Shown: one piece after another, positions 4,166-25,981 of the stretch
Numbering within the stretch: the stretch's first letter is position 1
How the letters are laid out: every line of letters begins with the position of its first letter
IMG/VR virus record: IMGVR_UViG_2602041549_000012
Direction: 5' to 3' (one strand)
Length of the DNA: 34,341 nt
DNA from: a virus
Lineage: Duplodnaviria; Heunggongvirae; Uroviricota; Caudoviricetes
Translations under genes and position numbers: made by a program
Notes under the pieces: model-generated
The model's database searches: none
Told to the model about the DNA's origin: nothing
What the model saw: the letters and a program-made list of their open reading frames with translations, nothing else

Positions 4166-6431
4166 AGCCTCCGGGCGTTTTGTCCCTCCGTCAGCATTTG
4201 CCGCAGGCACCGGTGAGACGTTTACCGGTGCTTATGCATGGAACGCGCCACGCGAGGCCGTCGGGCGCGAAAGACCCCTTACACGTGACGAGATGCGTCA
4301 GGTGCAAGGTGTTTTATCCACGATTAACCGCCTGCCTTACTTTTTGCGCTCGCTGTTTACTTCACGCTATGACTACATCAGGCGCAATAAAAGCCCGGTG
4401 CACGGGTTTTATTTCCTCACATCCACTTTTCAGCGTCGTTTATGGCCGCGCATTGAGCGCGTGAATCAGCGCCATGAAATGAACACCGATGCGTCGTTGC
4501 TGTTTCTGGCAGAGCGCGACCAGTATGCGCGCCTGCCGGGAATGAATGACAAGGAGCTGAAAAAGTTTGCTGCCCGTATCTCATCGCAGCTTTTCATGAT
4601 GTATGAGGAACTCTGCGATGCCTGGGTGGATGCGCATGGCGAGAAAGAATCGCTGTTTACGGATGAGGCGCAGGCTCACCTCTATGGTCATGTTGCTGGC
4701 GCTGCACGTGCTTTCAATATTTCCCCTCTCTACTGGAAAAAATACCGTAAAGGACAGATGACCACGAGGCAGGCATATTCTGCCATTGCCCGTCTGTTTA
4801 ACGATGAGTGGTGGACTCATCAGCTTAAAGGCCAGCGTATGCGCTGGCATGAGGCGTTACTGATAGCTGTCGGGGAGGTCAATAAAGACCGTTCTCCTTA
4901 TGCCAGTAAACATGCCATTCGGGATGTGCGTGCGCGCCGCCAGGCAAATCTGGAATTTCTTAAATCGTGTGACCTTGAAAACAGGGAAACCGGCGAGCGC
5001 ATCGACCTTATCAGTAAGGTGATGGGCAGTATTTCTAATCCTGAAATTCGCCGGATGGAGCTGATGAACACCATTGCCGGTATTGAGCGTTACGCCGCCT
5101 CAGAGGGTGATGTGGGGATGTTTATCACGCTTACCGCGCCGTCAAAGTATCACCCGACACGTCAGGTTGGAAAAGGCGAAAATAAAACCGTCCAGCTTAA
5201 TCACGGCTGGAATGATGAGGCATTTAATCCAAAGGATGCGCAGCGTTATCTCTGCCGTATCTGGAGCCTGATGCGCACGGCATTCAAGGATAATGATTTA
5301 CAGGTCTACGGTTTGCGAGTCGTCGAGCCACACCACGACGGAACGCCGCACTGGCATATGATGCTTTTTTGTAATCCACGCCAGCGTAACCAGATTATCG
5401 AAATCATGCATCGCTATGCGCTCAAAGAGGATGGCGACGAAAGAGGAGCCGCGCGAAACCGTTTTCAGGCAAAACACCTTAACCGGGGCGGTGCTGCGGG
5501 ATATATCGCGAAATACATTTCAAAAAATATCGACGGCTATGCACTGGATGGTCAGCTCGATAACGATACCGGCAGACCGCTGAAAGATACTGCGGCGGCT
5601 GTTACCGCATGGGCGTCAACGTGGCGCATCCCGCAATTTAAAACGGTTGGCCTGCCGACAATGGGAGCTTACCGTGAGCTACGTAAATTGCCTCGCGGCG
5701 TCAGCATTGCTGATGAATTTGACGAACGCGTGGAGGCTGCACGCGCCGCCGCAGACAGTGGCGATTTTGCGCTGTATATCAGCGCGCAGGGCGGGGCAAA
5801 TGTCCCGCGCGATTGTCAGACTGTCAGGGTCGCCCGTAGCCCGTCGGATGACGTTAACGAATACGAGGAAGAAGTCGAGAGAGTGGTCGGCATTTACGCG
5901 CCGCATCTCGGCGCGCGTCATATTCATATCACCAGAACGACGGACTGGCGCATTGTGCCGAAAGTGCCGGTCGTTGAGCCTTTGACTTTAAAAAGCGGCA
6001 TCGCCGCGCCTCGGAGTCCTGTCAATAACTGTGGAAAGCTCACCGGTAGTGATGCTTCGTTACCGGCTCCCACACCTTCTGAGCACGCCGCCGCAGTGCT
6101 TAATCTGGTTGATGACGGTGTTATCGAATGGAATGACCAGGAGGTCGTGAGGGCGCTCAGGGGCGAATTAAAACACGACCTGAGAACACCAAACCGTCAG
6201 CAAAGAAGCGGAAGCCCGTTAAAACCGCATGAAATAGCGCCATCGGCCAGACTGACCCGGTCGGAACGAATGCAAATTACCCGTATCCGCGTTGACCTTG
6301 CTCAGAACGGTATCAGGCCGCAGCGATGGGAGCTTGAGGCGCTGGCGCGTGGGGCAACCGTAAATTATGATGGGAAAAAATTCACGTATCCGGTTGCTGA
6401 TGAGTGGCCGGGGTTCTCGTTACCCATTTGA
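4155..6431 (+). CDS. A: Replication initiator A (rolling-circle nickase)
   Basis: Large ORF at the P2 A position. Contains the HWHMMLF region, consistent with rolling-circle initiator HUH/tyrosine motifs. The track start at 4113 is TTG, so ATG 4155 (MAVKASGRF) is preferred. Confidence 0.85.
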   Translation: MAVKASGRFVPPSAFAAGTGETFTGAYAWNAPREAVGRERPLTRDEMRQVQGVLSTINRLPYFLRSLFTSRYDYIRRNKSPVHGFYFLTSTFQRRLWPRIERVNQRHEMNTDASLLFLAERDQYARLPGMNDKELKKFAARISSQLFMMYEELCDAWVDAHGEKESLFTDEAQAHLYGHVAGAARAFNISPLYWKKYRKGQMTTRQAYSAIARLFNDEWWTHQLKGQRMRWHEALLIAVGEVNKDRSPYASKHAIRDVRARRQANLEFLKSCDLENRETGERIDLISKVMGSISNPEIRRMELMNTIAGIERYAASEGDVGMFITLTAPSKYHPTRQVGKGENKTVQLNHGWNDEAFNPKDAQRYLCRIWSLMRTAFKDNDLQVYGLRVVEPHHDGTPHWHMMLFCNPRQRNQIIEIMHRYALKEDGDERGAARNRFQAKHLNRGGAAGYIAKYISKNIDGYALDGQLDNDTGRPLKDTAAAVTAWASTWRIPQFKTVGLPTMGAYRELRKLPRGVSIADEFDERVEAARAAADSGDFALYISAQGGANVPRDCQTVRVARSPSDDVNEYEEEVERVVGIYAPHLGARHIHITRTTDWRIVPKVPVVEPLTLKSGIAAPRSPVNNCGKLTGSDASLPAPTPSEHAAAVLNLVDDGVIEWNDQEVVRALRGELKHDLRTPNRQQRSGSPLKPHEIAPSARLTRSERMQITRIRVDLAQNGIRPQRWELEALARGATVNYDGKKFTYPVADEWPGFSLPI

Positions 6432-6691
6432 GTAAAAACACAACGTGATTTGATATGGCATTGAATGGCTTATGCGGAGCAGTTATGGGGCAGCAGAAGG
6501 TCAATAGCATGCTGAATTAGAAGGCTAAATGCTATTGAGTGACTAGCATGTCGGTAAGGACAGCCGTTTGATCCGGGTCATAAAAGGCCATCCATTTAGT
6601 CTAATAAAATCATTGCGGGTAACCTTATGTCGACGCATAATTCGTCTTGAGCGAAGTCTTGTCAGTCTTTCATCGTATTGATGATGGGCGC

Positions 6692-6721
6692 AAAAAAACC
6701 ACCCTGGCAGGTGGTTTTTTT
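6692..6721. terminator. Bidirectional rho-independent terminator (A7-hairpin-T7)
   Basis: aaaaaaa-CCACCctggcaGGTGG-ttttttt. The hairpin is flanked by an A-run and a T-run, so it can terminate transcripts on both strands. Confidence 0.55.
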
Positions 6722-6733
6722 GTTTGAAGCATA

Positions 6734-6847
6734 TTAAAGCATAATGCTGACATTGATATTACTGACGTTTACTGACAAACCACTCGGACTACCGTTTGGA
6801 TAGCCAAAGAGGGCCAGAACGAGAATGCAGTAATAGCATTTCTTCAT
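6734..6847 (-). CDS. Small hydrophobic peptide (37 aa), candidate type I toxin-like or membrane peptide
   Basis: ATG at 6847 is preceded by AGGAGG with 4-nt spacing. The peptide MKKCYYCILVLALFGY... has a hydrophobic N-terminus. The stop is followed immediately by the 6692-6721 terminator. Confidence 0.35.
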   Translation of the reverse strand: MKKCYYCILVLALFGYPNGSPSGLSVNVSNINVSIML

Positions 6848-7325
6848 ATTGCCTCCTGTAAGTAGAGGGCAACTTCCACCGGTATATGCGCTTCTTAGGT
6901 GGAATGACTTTTGAGCGAAGTCTTGCCCTGAAATAATGCTCTGTTTAAACGCAAAGTGATTTGGCATATCACCGAACAGAGAGCCGGAAAAACACAACAT
7001 ATAGTATGTCGTTGTTTCTAGACATACATTCTATGTTGTGTAACAAGGGCTTTGCATTAAACATGTTTGAGATTTTATTGATGTAGCTCAAAGTAAAAAA
7101 CAGAGACTACGGATGATAAGGTCTTGAAAGCAATGTAAATTTTTTAAAGTTGCCAATTGCTTAAAAATGTACAGTTGCGGTATGGCGTACTTAAAAAGCT
7201 ATGCATGCAACAAGTGAATGTTTTTGCATGCGTTGGGGATGTCCGTTCAGGCTGCGTGCGGTCAGGACTGGTGCGGATCCATAGTATCTATGCAACTGCA
7301 TTAAAACCGCCCCGTGAAGCGGGCG

Positions 7326-7344
7326 GGCGAGGCGGGGAAAGCAC
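7326..7344. other. cos: Putative cos site (19-nt cohesive end, GGCGAGGCGGGGAAAGCAC)
   Basis: Exact match to the P2 cohesive-end sequence as I recall it. Sits in a GC-rich island flanked by AT-rich DNA, between A and Q as expected for a prophage. Confidence 0.6.
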
Positions 7345-7380
7345 CGCGCGTAAGATAAACAGAAGAGCGAAGGATTATGG

Positions 7381-7409
7381 TTGAGTATTTGTGTTTTTGT
7401 ACATATGAT
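7381..7409 (+). promoter_or_regulatory. Putative sigma70 promoter for the cargo operon
   Basis: TTGAGT, 17-bp spacer, TATGAT. AAAGGAG RBS at 7440-7446, ahead of the ATG at 7451. Confidence 0.4.
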
Positions 7410-7450
7410 AAAAAGGTGTTTACGCTTAAAAACACATCAAAGGAGATGAT

Positions 7451-8752
7451 ATGGAAAATATAAAGATTGATAAGTTTCTCACTATTCAAAAAGTTGATAT
7501 TCCTCTTAAGAAAGTGAATATATTTATTGGGCCTCAGGCACAGGGGAAAAGTGTCATTGCAAAGCTAATAAAATATTTTAAAGATTACCCTATGGATATA
7601 CTACGAGCTTCAACAGAGGGTAAAACTAAAAGAGATATATTGAAGGAGCAAAAGAATAAGTTTAGTAAAATTTTCCCTCAGCAGTATTGGGCTGATGATG
7701 AGTTTTTTATTGAGTATAGTAATAAGCACTATTGGGTGCGGATTACTAATCGAAAAGATAGCAAAGGGTCATTGAAAATAACCCTTTCTGAGAATTTAAC
7801 GAAGACGATTGCTAAACTTCGTTTGATTGTACGAAAGGATTTAGATGAAAATATTGAGAATTCACTTGCAGAAAGCGTTACGAGAAGACGTAAACGCGGA
7901 ATTGAACATGAATTGCGAGTATGTCTTTCTCTAGGATTGTTTTCAGAACCAGAAACAAAGCTTGAAAGTGTTTTTTATATCCCCGCAGGGCGCTCTTTTT
8001 TTGCTAACTTGCAAAAAAATGTGTTTTCATTTTTATCCAGTAGTATAGAAATTGACTACTTTTTGACAGAGTTTGGTTCTCTGTATGAACAAACAAAAAA
8101 ATTATTTAGCCAAGATTACATGATTAGGATGCTTAGGGGGGCTGTGCCTCAACATGTTAATAAGCTTGTGGAGGAGTTGATTTGCGGAAAATATATAACA
8201 GAAAAGGGTGAGGATTTTATTCGTCATGCTGCTAAAAAGACGAATCTTAACAACTCGAGCTCAGGGCAGCAAGAAGCGTTACCAATGGCTTTAATGTTAT
8301 CCTCATGGCCGTATTTACAGTCTATGACTAGTAAGAGTTTTATTATTGAGGAGCCGGAGGCTCATCTGTTTCCTTCTGCCCAAGCAAAAGTTGTATCTTT
8401 AATAGCCTCAGCGTATAACCAAGCAGAAAGCTATTGTAGCTATACAATAACAACACATAGCCCATATATTCTAAGTGCCTTCAATAATTTGATTCAAGCA
8501 GGTAATGCATTGAAGTGTATTAAGGGCAAGAATAATGCCGATATCGAACGCTTATATAAGCTTGTTCCAGAGTCTCAAATTATTGATTTTGATGATGTGA
8601 CAGCTTATATGGTTAATGCTGGGAAAGTGACGGAAATACTGGATTCCGAACTAAATATATTAGATGCGAATGAAATAGATAGGATTTCCTCTATTTTTTC
8701 AGAGACTTTTGATGCATTGATTGATATCGAATATTCGGCTACTGTGAATTAG
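7451..8752 (+). CDS. Cargo gene 1: ABC-type (AAA_21/AAA_15-like) ATPase, 433 aa
   Basis: Walker A GPQAQGKS near the N-terminus, signature-like SSGQQ, Walker B FIIEEPEAHL, H-loop TTHSP. Strongly AT-rich compared with the phage backbone. Confidence 0.8.
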   Translation: MENIKIDKFLTIQKVDIPLKKVNIFIGPQAQGKSVIAKLIKYFKDYPMDILRASTEGKTKRDILKEQKNKFSKIFPQQYWADDEFFIEYSNKHYWVRITNRKDSKGSLKITLSENLTKTIAKLRLIVRKDLDENIENSLAESVTRRRKRGIEHELRVCLSLGLFSEPETKLESVFYIPAGRSFFANLQKNVFSFLSSSIEIDYFLTEFGSLYEQTKKLFSQDYMIRMLRGAVPQHVNKLVEELICGKYITEKGEDFIRHAAKKTNLNNSSSGQQEALPMALMLSSWPYLQSMTSKSFIIEEPEAHLFPSAQAKVVSLIASAYNQAESYCSYTITTHSPYILSAFNNLIQAGNALKCIKGKNNADIERLYKLVPESQIIDFDDVTAYMVNAGKVTEILDSELNILDANEIDRISSIFSETFDALIDIEYSATVN

Positions 8753-8760
8753 GTGATTGA

Positions 8761-9198
8761 ATGTGTAAAAATTGCAAAGGAAAAACAAAAAATAAAATCA
8801 TTGTGCTATCTGATAAAGGAACGTCAACGCAATTGTCAGTCATAAATGATAATGAGTTGGAGGTTGAGCATAAGTTAATAGATGGTTGCGCTATTGTTGT
8901 TGGGGAGCGGTGTGATCATTATTTGAAGATTTATAACAATCAGGATGTTTCACATCTTTTTGTTGAACTTAAAGGAAGTGATGTTGAAAAAGCTGTTAAA
9001 CAGATAGTGACAACTTTAAAGTCAGGTGTGATTAATGTAGGTGCTAAAGAAAAAAAACATGGTGCTATTGTTAGCACTAGGAATCCGCTAAACTCAACAG
9101 AAACCAATAAGTTAAAGAAGAAAATTCTTTTGAGTGACGGAGTGAATTTGCATTTCTATAAAATGAAGGCGCAGCAAAAAATAACTTCTTTTACATGA
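8761..9198 (+). CDS. Cargo gene 2: small partner protein (145 aa), possible PD-(D/E)xK-like nuclease
   Basis: Starts 9 nt after the gene 1 stop, with an AGGTGA RBS. Has an N-terminal CxxC and a D...hhhhELK arrangement (GERCDHYL...HLFVELKG). Lys-rich and AT-rich. Confidence 0.65.
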   Translation: MCKNCKGKTKNKIIVLSDKGTSTQLSVINDNELEVEHKLIDGCAIVVGERCDHYLKIYNNQDVSHLFVELKGSDVEKAVKQIVTTLKSGVINVGAKEKKHGAIVSTRNPLNSTETNKLKKKILLSDGVNLHFYKMKAQQKITSFT

Positions 9199-9211
9199 AG
9201 TGTTCTCTTGT

Positions 9212-9236
9212 ACAGGCATGCATTTGCATGCCTGTC
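9212..9236. terminator. Perfect 11-bp-stem hairpin downstream of the cargo operon
   Basis: ACAGGCATGCA-ttt-TGCATGCCTGT, 14 nt after the gene 2 stop. No clean T-run, so it is a weak terminator call. Confidence 0.4.
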
Positions 9237-9301
9237 GTGTAATCTTTTACACTATATTTGTGTTGGTTCTAATCTTGTTATGTGTTTGTTTCGGTGATGG
9301 A

Positions 9302-10321
9302 TCATAATGAATAAGTTCGAAAGCGAAATACATCTTCGCCAACCCAACAGTTAATTTCTTTACATCGCTCTTGGAGGAACGTTAGCTCGTTGCGTACAAA
9401 GACTTGTGCTGCTTTTGTTACATCTCCAAATCCTCCTGTGTTGTTGGGCATCATTCCTATCATTTGGGGAGGCACGCGATGAGCACTCATTAGATCTTCA
9501 GCACTTGCTTTTTTGATATTAAAAAAATCGTCCTTCGTTGCCACTTCACTGAGCGGGATAATTTTAATGCCGTCGGCTTTCCCCTGCGGGGCATAGAGAA
9601 ACAGATTTTTAAAGTTATTGCGGCCTTTCGACTTAACCATGTTTTCGCGAAGCATTTCGATATCGTTGCGATCCTGCACGGCATCGGTGACGTACATGAT
9701 GTATCCGGCATGTGCGCCATTTTCGTAATACTTGCGGCGGAACAGCGTGGCTGATTCATTCAGCCAGGCAGAGTTAAGGGCGCTGAGATACTCCGGCAGG
9801 CCGTACAGCTCCTGATTAATATCCGGCTCCAGCAGGTGAAACACGGAGCCGGGCGCGAAGGCTGTCGGCTCGTTGAAGGACGGCACCCACCAGTAAACAT
9901 CCTCTTCCACACCACGGCGGGTATATTTTGCCGGTGAGGTTTCCAGTCTGATGACCTTACCGGTGGTGCTGTAACGCTTTTCCAGAAATGCATTACCGAA
10001 TACCAGAAAATCCAGCACAAAGCGGCTGAAATCCTGTTGCGAAAGCCACGGATGCGGGATAAATGTCGAGGCCAGAATATTACGTTTGACGTAAATCGGT
10101 GAGCTGTGATGCACGGCAGCACGCAGGCTTTTTGCCAGACCGGTAAAGCTGACCGGTGGCTCATACCATCTGCCGTTACTGATGCACTCGACGTAATCCA
10201 GAATGTCACGCCGGTCGAGTACCGGCACCGGCTCACCAAAGGTGAATGCCTCCATTTTCGGGGCGCTGGCGGTCAATGTTTTCACCGCTGGCTGCGGTGT
10301 TTTCCCTTTTTTCTTGCTCAT
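9302..10321 (-). CDS. Q: Portal protein Q
   Basis: 339 aa, first gene after cos on the minus strand. Start overlaps the P stop (TGATG). Synteny with the P2 Q-P pair. Confidence 0.85.
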   Translation of the reverse strand: MSKKKGKTPQPAVKTLTASAPKMEAFTFGEPVPVLDRRDILDYVECISNGRWYEPPVSFTGLAKSLRAAVHHSSPIYVKRNILASTFIPHPWLSQQDFSRFVLDFLVFGNAFLEKRYSTTGKVIRLETSPAKYTRRGVEEDVYWWVPSFNEPTAFAPGSVFHLLEPDINQELYGLPEYLSALNSAWLNESATLFRRKYYENGAHAGYIMYVTDAVQDRNDIEMLRENMVKSKGRNNFKNLFLYAPQGKADGIKIIPLSEVATKDDFFNIKKASAEDLMSAHRVPPQMIGMMPNNTGGFGDVTKAAQVFVRNELTFLQERCKEINCWVGEDVFRFRTYSL

Positions 10322-18538: not shown

Positions 18539-19324
18539 TTATGAGTGATTTTTATTTGATGCTTTGTATTCTAAAACCTTCTTATTGGCGTAAAAGAATT
18601 TTGTATATGACAGGAATATAACCAGACCTGAAGTGAAATAGACGAGGGATAGTATTAATAATGCTTTTTTGTGACTGTTATTATCTTTAATCTCCTGGCT
18701 TAACCATTCGGAGTCCTCCTCGTTTAGCTGTAAGAGCTTATTGCAGGCGATCTCAGGAAGTGTGTCTTTTATAAATACGTTTTGCAGTCTCTTGCAATCG
18801 GCAAGGGTATAAGTTTTATTAAATTCAACTGCTTTATTTTTGAAGGATAAAAGAACTTTGTCACTATAAACATAGTACATCATGTTTTTATATGGTATGC
18901 CTATGGCATCCCTTACTATAACGGATTGTTCGTTGTGTATGTAACATGCGAGGAGAATGTAAAAAATACAGGCCAGAATTACAATTATTGTTTTAATTAT
19001 GTGTGGTGGTTTTGTTATGTCACCCCAGATGCGAGTAAGGAAAAAATACGATGTTTTTAGTTTTCCATCAATCAGTCCCTGCTGTATCATTCTCACATTT
19101 TCAATGCCTGATACATTGATTCCGTTAATTATTTTAAATAGTTGAATGTCGCGCCACTCGCGGTCAAGTCTTTTTAATTTTTTGTCTGAATATCCAAAAT
19201 TGAAATAATGTGCAATAAGCCTCATAAGGTTACTTTTACCAAAGCTAAAAAATGCTAATACTGCAAAGCTACAAAGGAAAAAAACGATTAGCCCCCACAC
19301 ATTAGTCACATTATAGCTGACCAT
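18539..19324 (-). CDS. AT-rich cargo membrane protein (261 aa, about 3 TM helices) at the S/V junction
   Basis: Opposite strand to the late genes. AAGGAG RBS. Hydrophobic helices at the N-terminus, middle and C-terminus. Strongly AT-rich. Occupies the position of P2 orf30. Confidence 0.7.
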   Translation of the reverse strand: MVSYNVTNVWGLIVFFLCSFAVLAFFSFGKSNLMRLIAHYFNFGYSDKKLKRLDREWRDIQLFKIINGINVSGIENVRMIQQGLIDGKLKTSYFFLTRIWGDITKPPHIIKTIIVILACIFYILLACYIHNEQSVIVRDAIGIPYKNMMYYVYSDKVLLSFKNKAVEFNKTYTLADCKRLQNVFIKDTLPEIACNKLLQLNEEDSEWLSQEIKDNNSHKKALLILSLVYFTSGLVIFLSYTKFFYANKKVLEYKASNKNHS

Positions 19325-24840: not shown

Positions 24841-25701
24841 TCATTGTTTTGTATTCTTTAATAACTCTAAGTCGATAACAAGTATACGTGTTGGAATCGG
24901 GGCTTTATTTGGGTACAAACGTTCTCTTTTCAAATTAAAAGCCTCGCCGCTTTTAAATAACCTAGAAATGTCATGACCTTTAAATACATAATCTAAGTTT
25001 GCATCGTTTTCGTGAATTTGATGCAACTCTATTTTTTCATTCTCGGGCACTATGACGTTTGAGTATGATAGAGAAATCACATCTGGCGGTTGTTGTGGTG
25101 TTGTATTTCTATAAATATATTTACTTCTGGTTCCTATACACTCCAGAAGACAACAAAGCGGGTATGTCGTTCTAACCTTGTGTATTGAATTGAAATTCTT
25201 CCCTCTTTTTTTATGTATTGCACTAACTACCACTTCAAGATTAGCAACAGTAATTCCCATTTTTTTTCTTGATATTGGTCTCTTACAATTCCAATACTCA
25301 TCAAGTTCAGCTTGTTTTGGGTAATTGTAAAAAGCATAGAGTGGTACTGCGTTTGTATCTTTAGCGTACTGCTGTAATATATTATGTTGTAAAATTTTAT
25401 TTTTCCCTACCTCATGCTTTAGCTTTTTATATGAATACTGGTTATGATCCATTTTTTTTGCTTGTATTGCATATCGTACCCAACCAGTTTTCCTGCTCCC
25501 AATCCACCATTCCCAATCTGTTCCTTTTGTTGACTCTTTATCTTTGGTGGTTTTCTTTATAGTCACATAACTATAATCTCGCCTAGCAATCTCTAATAAA
25601 ATTAAATCACTAATTGTTTCTTCACCTATAGATAATCCTAATTTTTTTCCATCATGAAGCAAATCCCAGACATACTCAGAAATATCAGAAAAAACACTCA
25701 T
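24841..25701 (-). CDS. AT-rich cargo protein (286 aa) at the G/FI junction, function unknown
   Basis: Minus strand between G and FI, the position of P2 Z/fun. The track start at 25704 is TTG, with an ATG at 25701. Strongly AT-rich. Possible PD-(D/E)xK-like N-terminal motifs (TDWEWWIG ... YAIQAKK). Confidence 0.65.
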   Translation of the reverse strand: MSVFSDISEYVWDLLHDGKKLGLSIGEETISDLILLEIARRDYSYVTIKKTTKDKESTKGTDWEWWIGSRKTGWVRYAIQAKKMDHNQYSYKKLKHEVGKNKILQHNILQQYAKDTNAVPLYAFYNYPKQAELDEYWNCKRPISRKKMGITVANLEVVVSAIHKKRGKNFNSIHKVRTTYPLCCLLECIGTRSKYIYRNTTPQQPPDVISLSYSNVIVPENEKIELHQIHENDANLDYVFKGHDISRLFKSGEAFNLKRERLYPNKAPIPTRILVIDLELLKNTKQ

Positions 25702-25981
25702 CAACTCAACCTATATAAATGATATATAATTCATGTCTAAATATCGTCTTTGCCACTCAAAACTTTAGGGTGATGAAAAAATATAATGAAGTTCAAAAGG
25801 AACTAAGCGTACGATATCCATAATTATACTCTTTCAGACTTTCTGGATAACCCATCTTGGGAAGAGATTCCGCAAAACGCAAACCAACGTCCGCTCCTCG
25901 CTCAAAACAGGCTGTCAGATTTGATAGCGTTTCGGCTATGTAAATAGTCAGTCGGAAAATAAGTGAGTACAAATCAGGACA

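Follow-up and report, generated by a model that had tools for sequence, protein, structure and literature searches.

The window analysed here, a 34,341-nt stretch of DNA, carries an operon of two genes between cos and the portal gene (Table 1). The genes lie on the same strand with a gap of 8 nt (8753-8760), in agreement with the two co-oriented and tightly linked reading frames of the original prediction, which had put the gap at 9 nt. The P2-type cohesive end was found as an exact match; therefore, the operon does sit between cos and the portal gene, as had been claimed. The same cohesive-end sequence is also visible in P4 sequences in Table S2A of Rousset et al. 2022. The left boundary of the cargo is cos; the likeness to P2-like phages ends at about 7350-7360, and on this flank the P2-like phage records match only positions 7300-7360 of the window. 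The GC content is 0.353 in gene 1 and 0.329 in gene 2, compared with 0.537 in the A-like replication gene, 0.501 in the portal gene and 0.574 in the terminase gene, so the cargo is far more AT-rich than its flanks, as noticed earlier. The A-Q region of P2 has been validated as a hotspot for defence genes, and the position next to cos agrees with the proposal of a two-gene cargo in this hotspot. A 2026 preprint on the P2/P4 hotspots tested P4 loci only. An Rfam scan of positions 6300-9400 gave no credible match.

Table 1. Features at the cargo locus, in coordinates of the window
Feature	Position	Strand	Basis or remark
P2-type cos cohesive end, 19 nt, GGCGAGGCGGGGAAAGCAC	7326-7344		Exact match; 0 matches in 100 shuffles
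Candidate promoter-like sigma-70 site, TTGAGT-17-TATGAT	7381..7409	+	9/12 match; 42 nt upstream of gene 1
Shine-Dalgarno, AAGGAG	7440..7445	+	5 nt before the gene 1 ATG; read from the sequence
wonA-like gene (gene 1), 433 aa, OLD-type ABC ATPase	7451..8752	+	Motifs, Pfam, WonA homology, model
Shine-Dalgarno-like, AGGTGA	8751..8756	+	Overlaps the gene 1 stop; 4 nt before the gene 2 ATG
wonB-like gene (gene 2), 145 aa, small PD-(D/E)xK-variant nuclease (predicted)	8761..9198	+	Signature, model, WonB homology
Perfect 10-bp hairpin, ACAGGCATGC-ATTT-GCATGCCTGT	9212..9235		Separates gene 2 from the portal gene, which converges on it

The operon had been credited with a promoter-like element and a ribosome-binding site of its own. 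Both genes are indeed preceded by a Shine-Dalgarno or similar sequence, and the overlap of the second one with the stop codon of gene 1 suggests that the two genes are translationally coupled. The promoter-like site also exists, but the region holds 8 such sites against 9.4 expected from shuffles, so this element alone is no evidence of a promoter. The hairpin downstream of gene 2 is likely a terminator with a weak T-run, and it was not called by a consensus terminator scan.

An OLD-type ABC ATPase and a small predicted nuclease

Gene 1 contains the full ABC/AAA_21-type motif set that had been read from it, with all four motifs in place, namely GPQAQGKS (residues 27-34), SSGQQ (270-274), FIIEEPEAHL (297-306) and TTHSP (334-338). 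The key residues are Lys33 of Walker A, Arg181, Glu301 of Walker B and His336 of the H-loop, all four of which are invariant in an alignment of 54 homologues. The C-terminal extension, at about residues 350-433, has three further invariant residues in the same alignment, Gly391, Asp410 and Ser413. Pfam matches were obtained to AAA_15 (8e-21) and AAA_21 (4.5e-9), and the protein is an ABC/AAA_15-type ATPase with neither a fused nuclease nor a Toprim domain, as had been stated. The AF2 model has a pLDDT of 86.9, and the nearest solved folds are PtuA and the Rad50/SMC heads. Neither gene matched a PDB chain in sequence or profile searches. The RefSeq label of gene 1 is "AAA family ATPase" and that of gene 2 is "hypothetical protein".

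The catalytic signature of gene 2 consists of Asp41, Asp52, Glu69-Leu70-Lys71 and Gln81, which are invariant or near-invariant among 71 relatives. The N-terminal CxxC (CKNC, residues 2-5) and the ELK motif (residues 69-71) that had been noticed are present, but the spacing between Asp52 and Glu69 is 16 residues rather than 17. The predicted model is confident, whereas its matches to restriction-endonuclease folds are only weak, the best being the FokI cleavage domain, EcoT38I, BamHI, N.BspD6I and Mus81. The protein has the hallmarks of PD-(D/E)xK enzymes, which are a restriction-endonuclease-like alpha/beta core, an aspartate where a strand begins, the (D/E)xK one strand further on and a conserved position in the helix after it. 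Together, the invariant D...ExK...Q and the model support gene 2 as a minimal PD-(D/E)xK-type nuclease, as predicted earlier, in which the lysine of the ELK motif would be catalytic. No family in Pfam, NCBIfam or PHROGs covers the protein. A Pfam scan of the 71 relatives yielded scattered sub-threshold matches, of which the few to restriction folds (HSDR_N, HSDR_N_2, NOV_C and CdiA_C) are too sparse to be used.

Homology to WonAB and distribution of the pair

WonAB is a pair of an ABC ATPase and a small nuclease from the WASA-1 prophage of Vibrio cholerae (Nat Microbiol 2025, PMC12137116). BLASTP comparison of gene 1 with V. cholerae WonA, using the 399 residues given in the supplement of that paper, revealed 37% identity (E 2e-74; residues 2-406 versus 3-399), a match that runs along the full length and takes in the C-terminal extension, and gene 2 shares 39% identity with WonB over 80 residues (E 6e-13). 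The residues Lys34, Arg182, Glu300 and His333 of WonA correspond to Lys33, Arg181, Glu301 and His336 of gene 1, and Asp40, Asp53, Glu69, Lys71 and Gln81 of WonB correspond to Asp41, Asp52, Glu69, Lys71 and Gln81 of gene 2. The four WonA residues and Lys71 of WonB are required in V. cholerae (PMC12137116), and thus every residue proven essential there is kept in the window pair. In addition, the E. coli E24377A locus is 99.1% identical to the window, with differences at 5 of 433 and 2 of 145 residues, and its genes ECE24377A_RS06440/RS06445 (NC_009801.1) are listed as WonA/WonB, hit #2 of the MacSyFinder WonAB model, in Supplementary Table 4 of PMC12137116; membership in this model was looked up for the E24377A copy in the authors' table. 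By homology, the pair is a member of the known WonAB family and not a new family or class.

The original prediction had considered a two-component defence or abortive-infection module, possibly of an undescribed family, and had named, as a finding that would speak against novelty, a firm assignment of the two genes to some system already characterised. Such a match was obtained with WonAB. An undescribed two-component family would fit the lack of a family model and of a PDB-chain match for gene 2, as well as its RefSeq label. However, the E-values and the conserved residues exclude spurious homology, the E24377A allele is in the published table, in PADLOC the best matches, and the sole ones that form a pair, are to PDC-M29A/B, and the same pair appears as P2-hotspot system #81, with 45 loci, in Table S5B of Rousset et al. 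2022, where it was catalogued without a test. This reading is therefore extremely unlikely. The part of the prediction that concerned defence is backed by the experiments on the V. cholerae homologue. The two genes are only moderately identical (37-39%) to the proteins that were tested, so the trigger and the phage range may differ from those of the V. cholerae system.

An exhaustive profile search gave 2,362 representatives of the gene 2 family; a word-indexed protein search had returned only 18 clusters and understated the family size. The same two-gene arrangement was found in 8 other loci, and the two genes stay paired in distantly related bacteria and in varied genomic surroundings. In Serratia the pair is a two-gene island on the chromosome, apart from mobile elements; elsewhere it adjoins an IS, SymE and RhuM in Kosakonia, lies in a lambdoid prophage in Enterobacter, adjoins HigBA and a Pf prophage in P. 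aeruginosa, and is conserved in Nostocales and on a metagenomic contig. The site is common among E. coli genomes but seldom holds this cargo: the cos flank is shared by about 2,086 of them, whereas the pair is present in 10 of 5,426. It was found at 100% identity in 8 genomes of unrelated sources. The E24377A prophage is decayed, with a truncated portal gene and an IS21 in the tape measure gene, and its pair is intact. Comparison with the E24377A allele gave a dN/dS of about 0.26. The comparisons with Serratia and Kosakonia gave a dN of 0.25-0.30 with saturated dS (NG86), so that selection there is stated only qualitatively. Judged from these substitution patterns, the pair is under purifying selection. 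The thousands of homologues, the conservation of the pair across phyla and the selection data indicate that the genes are real. The pair is almost certainly an anti-phage module.

Alternatively, the pair could be a passenger that is intact yet without function in E. coli, either unexpressed or with no trigger among coliphages. Its rarity, a promoter-like site that is not above chance, and the outcome of Rousset et al., in which 3 of 8 additional cloned P2-hotspot candidates were active, are in line with this. The identical copies in genomes of unrelated sources, the good ribosome-binding sites on both genes and the purifying selection argue against it, as does the finding that Vibrio WonAB protects E. 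coli against Vequintavirinae (PMC12137116), and we regard such a passenger as quite unlikely.

The cysteines of gene 2 point to a possible variation within the family. Among 71 sampled relatives Cys5 is conserved in 68, Cys43 in 64 and Cys51 in all 71, and Cys2, which forms the CxxC with Cys5 in E. coli, is specific to the enterobacterial clade. These cysteines bracket the catalytic loop, and V. cholerae WonB, the only tested protein, has neither Cys5 nor Cys43. If they form a zinc or redox site by which the nuclease is gated, the regulation, the trigger or the RNA target of the clade could differ from those in Vibrio. That the enterobacterial/P2 WonB clade might be a mechanistically distinct sub-type is a doubtful proposal, put forward tentatively from residue conservation.

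Proposed mechanism and significance

In V. cholerae with WonAB, phage DNA replication proceeds and the genomic DNA stays intact, and translation stops. Overproduction of WonB kills the cells in a Lys71-dependent manner; WonB is non-toxic without active WonA, mutations of the ATPase abolish the toxicity, and deletion of wonA is tolerated. WonB is also unstable in Vibrio, where it is degraded by Lon (all PMC12137116). By analogy with this system, we propose that the window pair works as follows. The WonA-like ATPase would form a dimer, to whose C-terminal extensions the small WonB-like nuclease is bound, and a cue that arises after the start of phage DNA replication would be sensed. ATP binding or hydrolysis might then license the nuclease, which would spare the chromosome and shut down translation, with rRNA or tRNA as the suspected target. 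The stop of translation would prevent capsid production, and the infection would be aborted without lysis. Free WonB-like protein would be cleared by Lon, limiting autoimmunity. A P2 lysogen with the pair would exclude unrelated phages in this way. An ATPase-licensed nuclease that aborts infection through translation shutdown is the likely mode of action by this analogy.

Two other modes of action were weighed against the same experiments. In a restriction-like system, the ABC ATPase would deliver the PD-(D/E)xK nuclease to incoming DNA, which would be degraded directly and with no host suicide. Such a system would suit the best fold matches of gene 2, all of them DNA endonucleases, and the solved folds closest to the ATPase, whose proteins act on nucleic acids. 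However, RNases also occur among PD-(D/E)xK folds, and the intact genomic DNA, the replicating phage DNA, the translation stop and the Lys71-dependent killing in V. cholerae make it unlikely. In a toxin-antitoxin or addiction module, the nuclease would be the toxin and the ATPase its antitoxin; the module would stabilise the prophage, and any anti-phage effect would be incidental. The toxicity and Lon degradation of WonB and the persistence of the pair in the decayed E24377A prophage could be understood in this way, and a Kosakonia homologue of gene 1 is named by NCBI as a 'putative AbiEii toxin, Type IV TA system'. But the toxicity of Vibrio WonB needs active WonA and loss of wonA is tolerated, which is the opposite of an antitoxin, and the Serratia pair is an island away from mobile elements; this alternative is very unlikely. 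By analogy with V. cholerae, the locus is most probably a WonAB-type module for abortive infection, which a P2-like prophage carries as an accessory immediately on the portal side of cos.

The main value of this assignment is the correct annotation of a pair known in RefSeq by the two labels given above, the second protein belonging to a family with more than 2,300 representative clusters and yet no Pfam, NCBIfam or PHROG model. It opens no new class of system. Recognition as WonAB adds a defence system validated by homology to the catalogue of P2-hotspot cargo, and an allele native to E. coli opens the trigger, the RNA target and the ATPase licensing of WonAB to standard coliphage genetics.

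Comparison with known systems

The window pair and V. cholerae WonAB are alike in gene order and sizes, with an OLD-type ABC ATPase of about 430 aa followed by a PD-(D/E)xK variant of about 140 aa, and both are prophage cargo. They differ in the host and the vehicle: WonAB follows a regulator gene in the WASA-1 prophage of Vibrio, whereas the pair lies next to cos in an E. coli P2-like phage, with no adjacent regulator gene seen at the locus. The same architecture is found in the 'OLD-ABC ATPase + novel REase' operon, a computational class predicted in silico by Krishnan et al. in 2020 and compared here by its description in PMC12137116, according to which its homologues, present in 0.96% of genomes, include every WonAB hit.

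In PADLOC, PDC-M29A is the best match of gene 1 (2e-31, in three stretches, the best one C-terminal) and PDC-M29B is the only match of gene 2 (2.8e-4, residues 23-129), a weak one as judged by its E-value. Most of the tested relatives showed the same pairing, with E-values of 1e-4 to 4e-7 for the B component, and one from Enterobacter gave no match to B. As these matches are partial or weak, PDC-M29 appears to be a sister group of the window pair rather than the same model family. PDC-M29 is an untested 'guilt-by-embedding' candidate of PADLOC (Payne et al. 2024 preprint), and a literature search for it found no reported phenotype.

PARIS, Septu, AbiL, Gabija, PD-T4-4, Menshen and HEC-02 were each considered as the family of the pair and rejected, as the partner gene failed the test. 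PARIS is alike in combining an AAA_15-type ABC ATPase sensor with a separate nuclease effector and in using the same P2/P4 hotspots, and its AriB is described in PMC12409363 as cleaving tRNA in an abortive attack on translation. Its effector is a DUF4435/Toprim protein, whereas gene 2 is of the PD-(D/E)xK type and has no DUF4435, Toprim or AriB match in Pfam and PADLOC at E <= 1. Gene 1 matches AriA models at 1.7e-25, less well than PDC-M29A, and the WonAB authors set WonA apart from AriA by its structure and its domains (PMC12137116). Septu and retron PtuAB share the logic of an ATPase with a small nuclease, and solved PtuA structures are the nearest to the ATPase in fold (Foldseek E 1e-9 to 1e-10, TM 0.4-0.5), with a sequence identity of only 11-17% and an NCBIfam PtuA score of 30.4 bits against a cut-off of 500. 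PtuAB of Retron-Eco7 is described as degrading tRNA-Tyr (PMC12673091). Septu PtuB is an HNH nuclease and gene 2 has no HNH match in Pfam; the original prediction was right in excluding both the HNH and the DUF4435 effectors.

PD-T4-4 and HEC-02 resemble the window pair in joining an ABC ATPase with a restriction-fold nuclease (PD-(D/E)xK or NERD). PD-T4-4_A matches gene 1 at 1.1e-16 and HEC-02A matches the Nostocales relative at 3e-15, whereas gene 2 has no match to PD-T4-4_B or NERD models in Pfam and PADLOC. The WonAB authors also note the likeness in organisation, with differences in the ATPase inserts and the C-terminal extensions (PMC12137116). P2 Old shares the prophage hotspot, the OLD-type ABC ATPase and the abortive exclusion of other phages with the proposed module. 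However, Old is one polypeptide with a fused Toprim nuclease, whereas at the window locus the predicted PD-(D/E)xK nuclease is a separate protein.

Operon structure beside the cohesive end

The operon begins 107 nt from cos toward the portal gene, as placed by the exact match to the P2 cohesive-end sequence. The original prediction had correctly described two co-oriented genes of these sizes, between cos and the portal gene, in DNA more AT-rich than its flanks. The GC content is 0.353 for gene 1 and 0.329 for gene 2, against 0.537, 0.501 and 0.574 for the A-like replication, portal and terminase genes, respectively. The spacing between the two genes is 8 nt instead of the predicted 9 nt, and the AGGTGA before gene 2 shares bases with the stop codon of gene 1, suggesting translational coupling. 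Both genes have a ribosome-binding site, whereas the promoter-like string, although present, stays a candidate because such sites are as frequent in shuffled sequence as in this region.

Other AT-rich DNA was also noted in the window. The 287-aa ORF has a Pfam match, DUF6615 (2.1e-16), and no match in PADLOC. It occupies the place of Z/fun in P2 and could be a further accessory or exclusion gene. The 261-aa ORF, placed as orf30 is in P2, has no Pfam or PADLOC match. The spacer from the replication gene to cos contains no long ORF and no family or Rfam match.

Features of the operon region and of other AT-rich DNA (window positions)
Feature	Position	Strand	Remark
Spacer	6432-7325		replication gene to cos
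Hairpin	about 6695-6722		within spacer; T-runs either side
37-aa ORF	6737-6847	-	within spacer; AGGAGG ribosome-binding site; hydrophobic N-terminus MKKCYYCILVLALFG...
P2 cohesive end	7326-7344		19 nt, exact match
Promoter-like site	7381-7409		candidate
Ribosome-binding site, gene 1	7440-7445		AAGGAG
Gene 1	7451..8752	+	433 aa
Gene 2	8761..9198	+	145 aa
Hairpin	9212-9235		perfect, 10 bp; between operon and convergent portal gene
261-aa ORF	18539-19324	-	AT-rich; several hydrophobic stretches; between tail-completion and baseplate V-like genes
287-aa ORF	24841-25704	-	AT-rich; opposite strand, between tail-fibre assembly and sheath genes

Assignment to WonAB and expected mechanism

Gene 1 carries the complete ABC-ATPase motif set originally predicted (GPQAQGKS 27-34, SSGQQ 270-274, FIIEEPEAHL 297-306 and TTHSP 334-338). 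Its Pfam matches are AAA_15 (8e-21) and AAA_21 (4.5e-9) with no fused nuclease, in agreement with the prediction. Among solved folds, those nearest to the confident AlphaFold2 model (pLDDT 86.9) are PtuA ABC ATPases from Septu and from retron Ec78/Ec83, with Rad50/SMC heads next (TM 0.4-0.5, 11-17% identity); a sequence search of PDB chains gave no match. In gene 2, the predicted CxxC and ELK were located as CKNC at residues 2-5 and ELK at 69-71, with a spacing of 16 and not 17 residues between D52 and E69. No family was matched in Pfam, NCBIfam or PHROG. Word-indexed search returned just 18 relatives, and exhaustive profile search 2,362 representative clusters at E <= 1e-3 (1,045 at E <= 1e-10). 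The 150 best matches listed stand alone and are short, most of them about 130-160 aa long. Over 71 diverse family members D41, C51, E69, K71 and Q81 are invariant, and C5, C43, D52, L70, G72 and P109 almost so. The predicted model (pLDDT 87.3, pTM 0.85) places D52 immediately ahead of strand 53-59, ends strand 62-69 in E69-x-K71 and puts Q81 on the next helix. This modelled layout is the canonical PD-(D/E)xK one, consistent with the minimal fold first proposed.

The best PADLOC match of gene 1 is PDC-M29A (2e-31) and the sole match of gene 2 is PDC-M29B (2.8e-4), PDC systems being 'guilt-by-embedding' candidates. Among the relatives tested, PDC-M29A was best for all three ATPases, and four of five small proteins matched PDC-M29B. 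The pair is P2-hotspot system #81 ('AAA_15/AAA_21', 45 loci) in Table S5B of Rousset et al. 2022, whose tables of tested systems do not contain its sequences. The match that settles the family is to WonAB, which is carried by the WASA-1 prophage of Vibrio cholerae and combines an OLD-type ABC ATPase with a 'variant of the PD-(D/E)xK nuclease fold' (PMC12137116). Comparison with the sequences from its supplement revealed 37% identity of gene 1 to WonA over all of the sequence available (E 2e-74) and 39% identity of gene 2 to WonB across the catalytic core (E 6e-13). Mutation of WonA K34, R182, E300 or H333, or of WonB K71, abolished defence (PMC12137116); the corresponding residues are K33, R181, E301 and H336 in gene 1 and K71 in gene 2. 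Supplementary Table 4 of the same paper enters ECE24377A_RS06440/RS06445 as WonA/WonB. These E. coli E24377A genes lie within the 99.1%-identical match to the operon region, and their proteins differ from those of the window at 5 of 433 and 2 of 145 residues. The pair is thus almost certainly a member of the WonAB family. The suggestion of an undescribed defence family is refuted by this match: the system is already known, and the allele has been catalogued twice in the literature. The anti-phage reading is essentially right, and the window allele quite probably has a defence function; that the pair is a silent passenger is unlikely.

Defence by V. cholerae WonAB needs both genes. Phage DNA replication begins, but capsid assembly fails and the cells do not lyse; translation halts and genomic DNA stays intact (PMC12137116). 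The fold neighbours suggest a DNA-targeting, restriction-like mode, which the Vibrio data contradict. Excess WonB is lethal, K71-dependently, only alongside active WonA, and WonB is broken down by Lon (PMC12137116); the dependence on active WonA contradicts a toxin-antitoxin or addiction module. C-terminal extensions of the WonA dimer hold WonB in an AlphaFold3 prediction (PMC12137116). Based on these Vibrio findings and the homology, the P2-borne pair would be expected to act as an ATPase-licensed nuclease, aborting infection by attack on the translation apparatus.

Distribution in other genomes

The ATPase and the small protein were found together in every genomic context opened. The Serratia marcescens pair forms a two-gene island flanked by housekeeping genes, the Kosakonia pair adjoins an IS element, SymE and RhuM, and on a metagenomic contig the truncated upstream ORF of the pair matches the C-terminal half of gene 1 at 37% identity. 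Where the ATPase is only 42-51% identical to gene 1, the small protein downstream still aligns with gene 2 and retains its motifs. Purifying selection acts on both genes. In Enterobacter metagenome-assembled contigs (L009/L010; L009 genes at 5001-6714) a 51%-identical pair lies in a lambdoid prophage between replication and RusA/lysis genes; therefore, the same module fills cargo sites of unrelated phage types. In the Pseudomonas aeruginosa loci (L011/L012, 3653-6687) the two genes overlap by 32 nt, immediately following a HigB/HTH toxin-antitoxin pair (HigBA) and ahead of apparent filamentous (Pf-like) prophage genes with weak Phage_Coat_B and DUF2523 matches. After the cyanobacterial (Nostocales) pair (L013, 5001-7682) come a 134-aa ORF and a 141-aa HNH-domain protein, which may represent an additional component or an adjacent system.

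Only 10 of 5,426 complete E. coli genomes carry the exact pair, against about 2,086 with the cos flank, as expected of variable cargo that occupies one fixed position; none of the deposited phage genomes has the pair. In E24377A (NC_009801.1 998540-1018540) the P2-like prophage sits between pflA and pflB and is decayed, with a truncated portal gene, an IS21 element inside the tape-measure gene and most of the late-gene region apparently missing. The pair is intact within it, which suggests retention for the host's benefit.

Comparison with Vibrio WonAB and P2-like genomes

Similarity to deposited P2-like phages stops within about 6-16 nt right of the cohesive end (window 7300-7360), so that the cargo junction lies almost directly against cos, on the side of the portal gene. 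On the A side of cos, about 0.9 kb of DNA is AT-rich and poor in ORFs. In NC_070906.1, a P2-like genome inspected, the A side is where the cargo (cysH and hypothetical proteins) is located. A regulator gene accompanies the WASA-1 pair and none stands beside the window pair. In addition, the clade of gene 2 conserves C5, C43 and C51, with C2 in enterobacteria, whereas V. cholerae WonB lacks C5 and C43; the cysteines may form a metal site.
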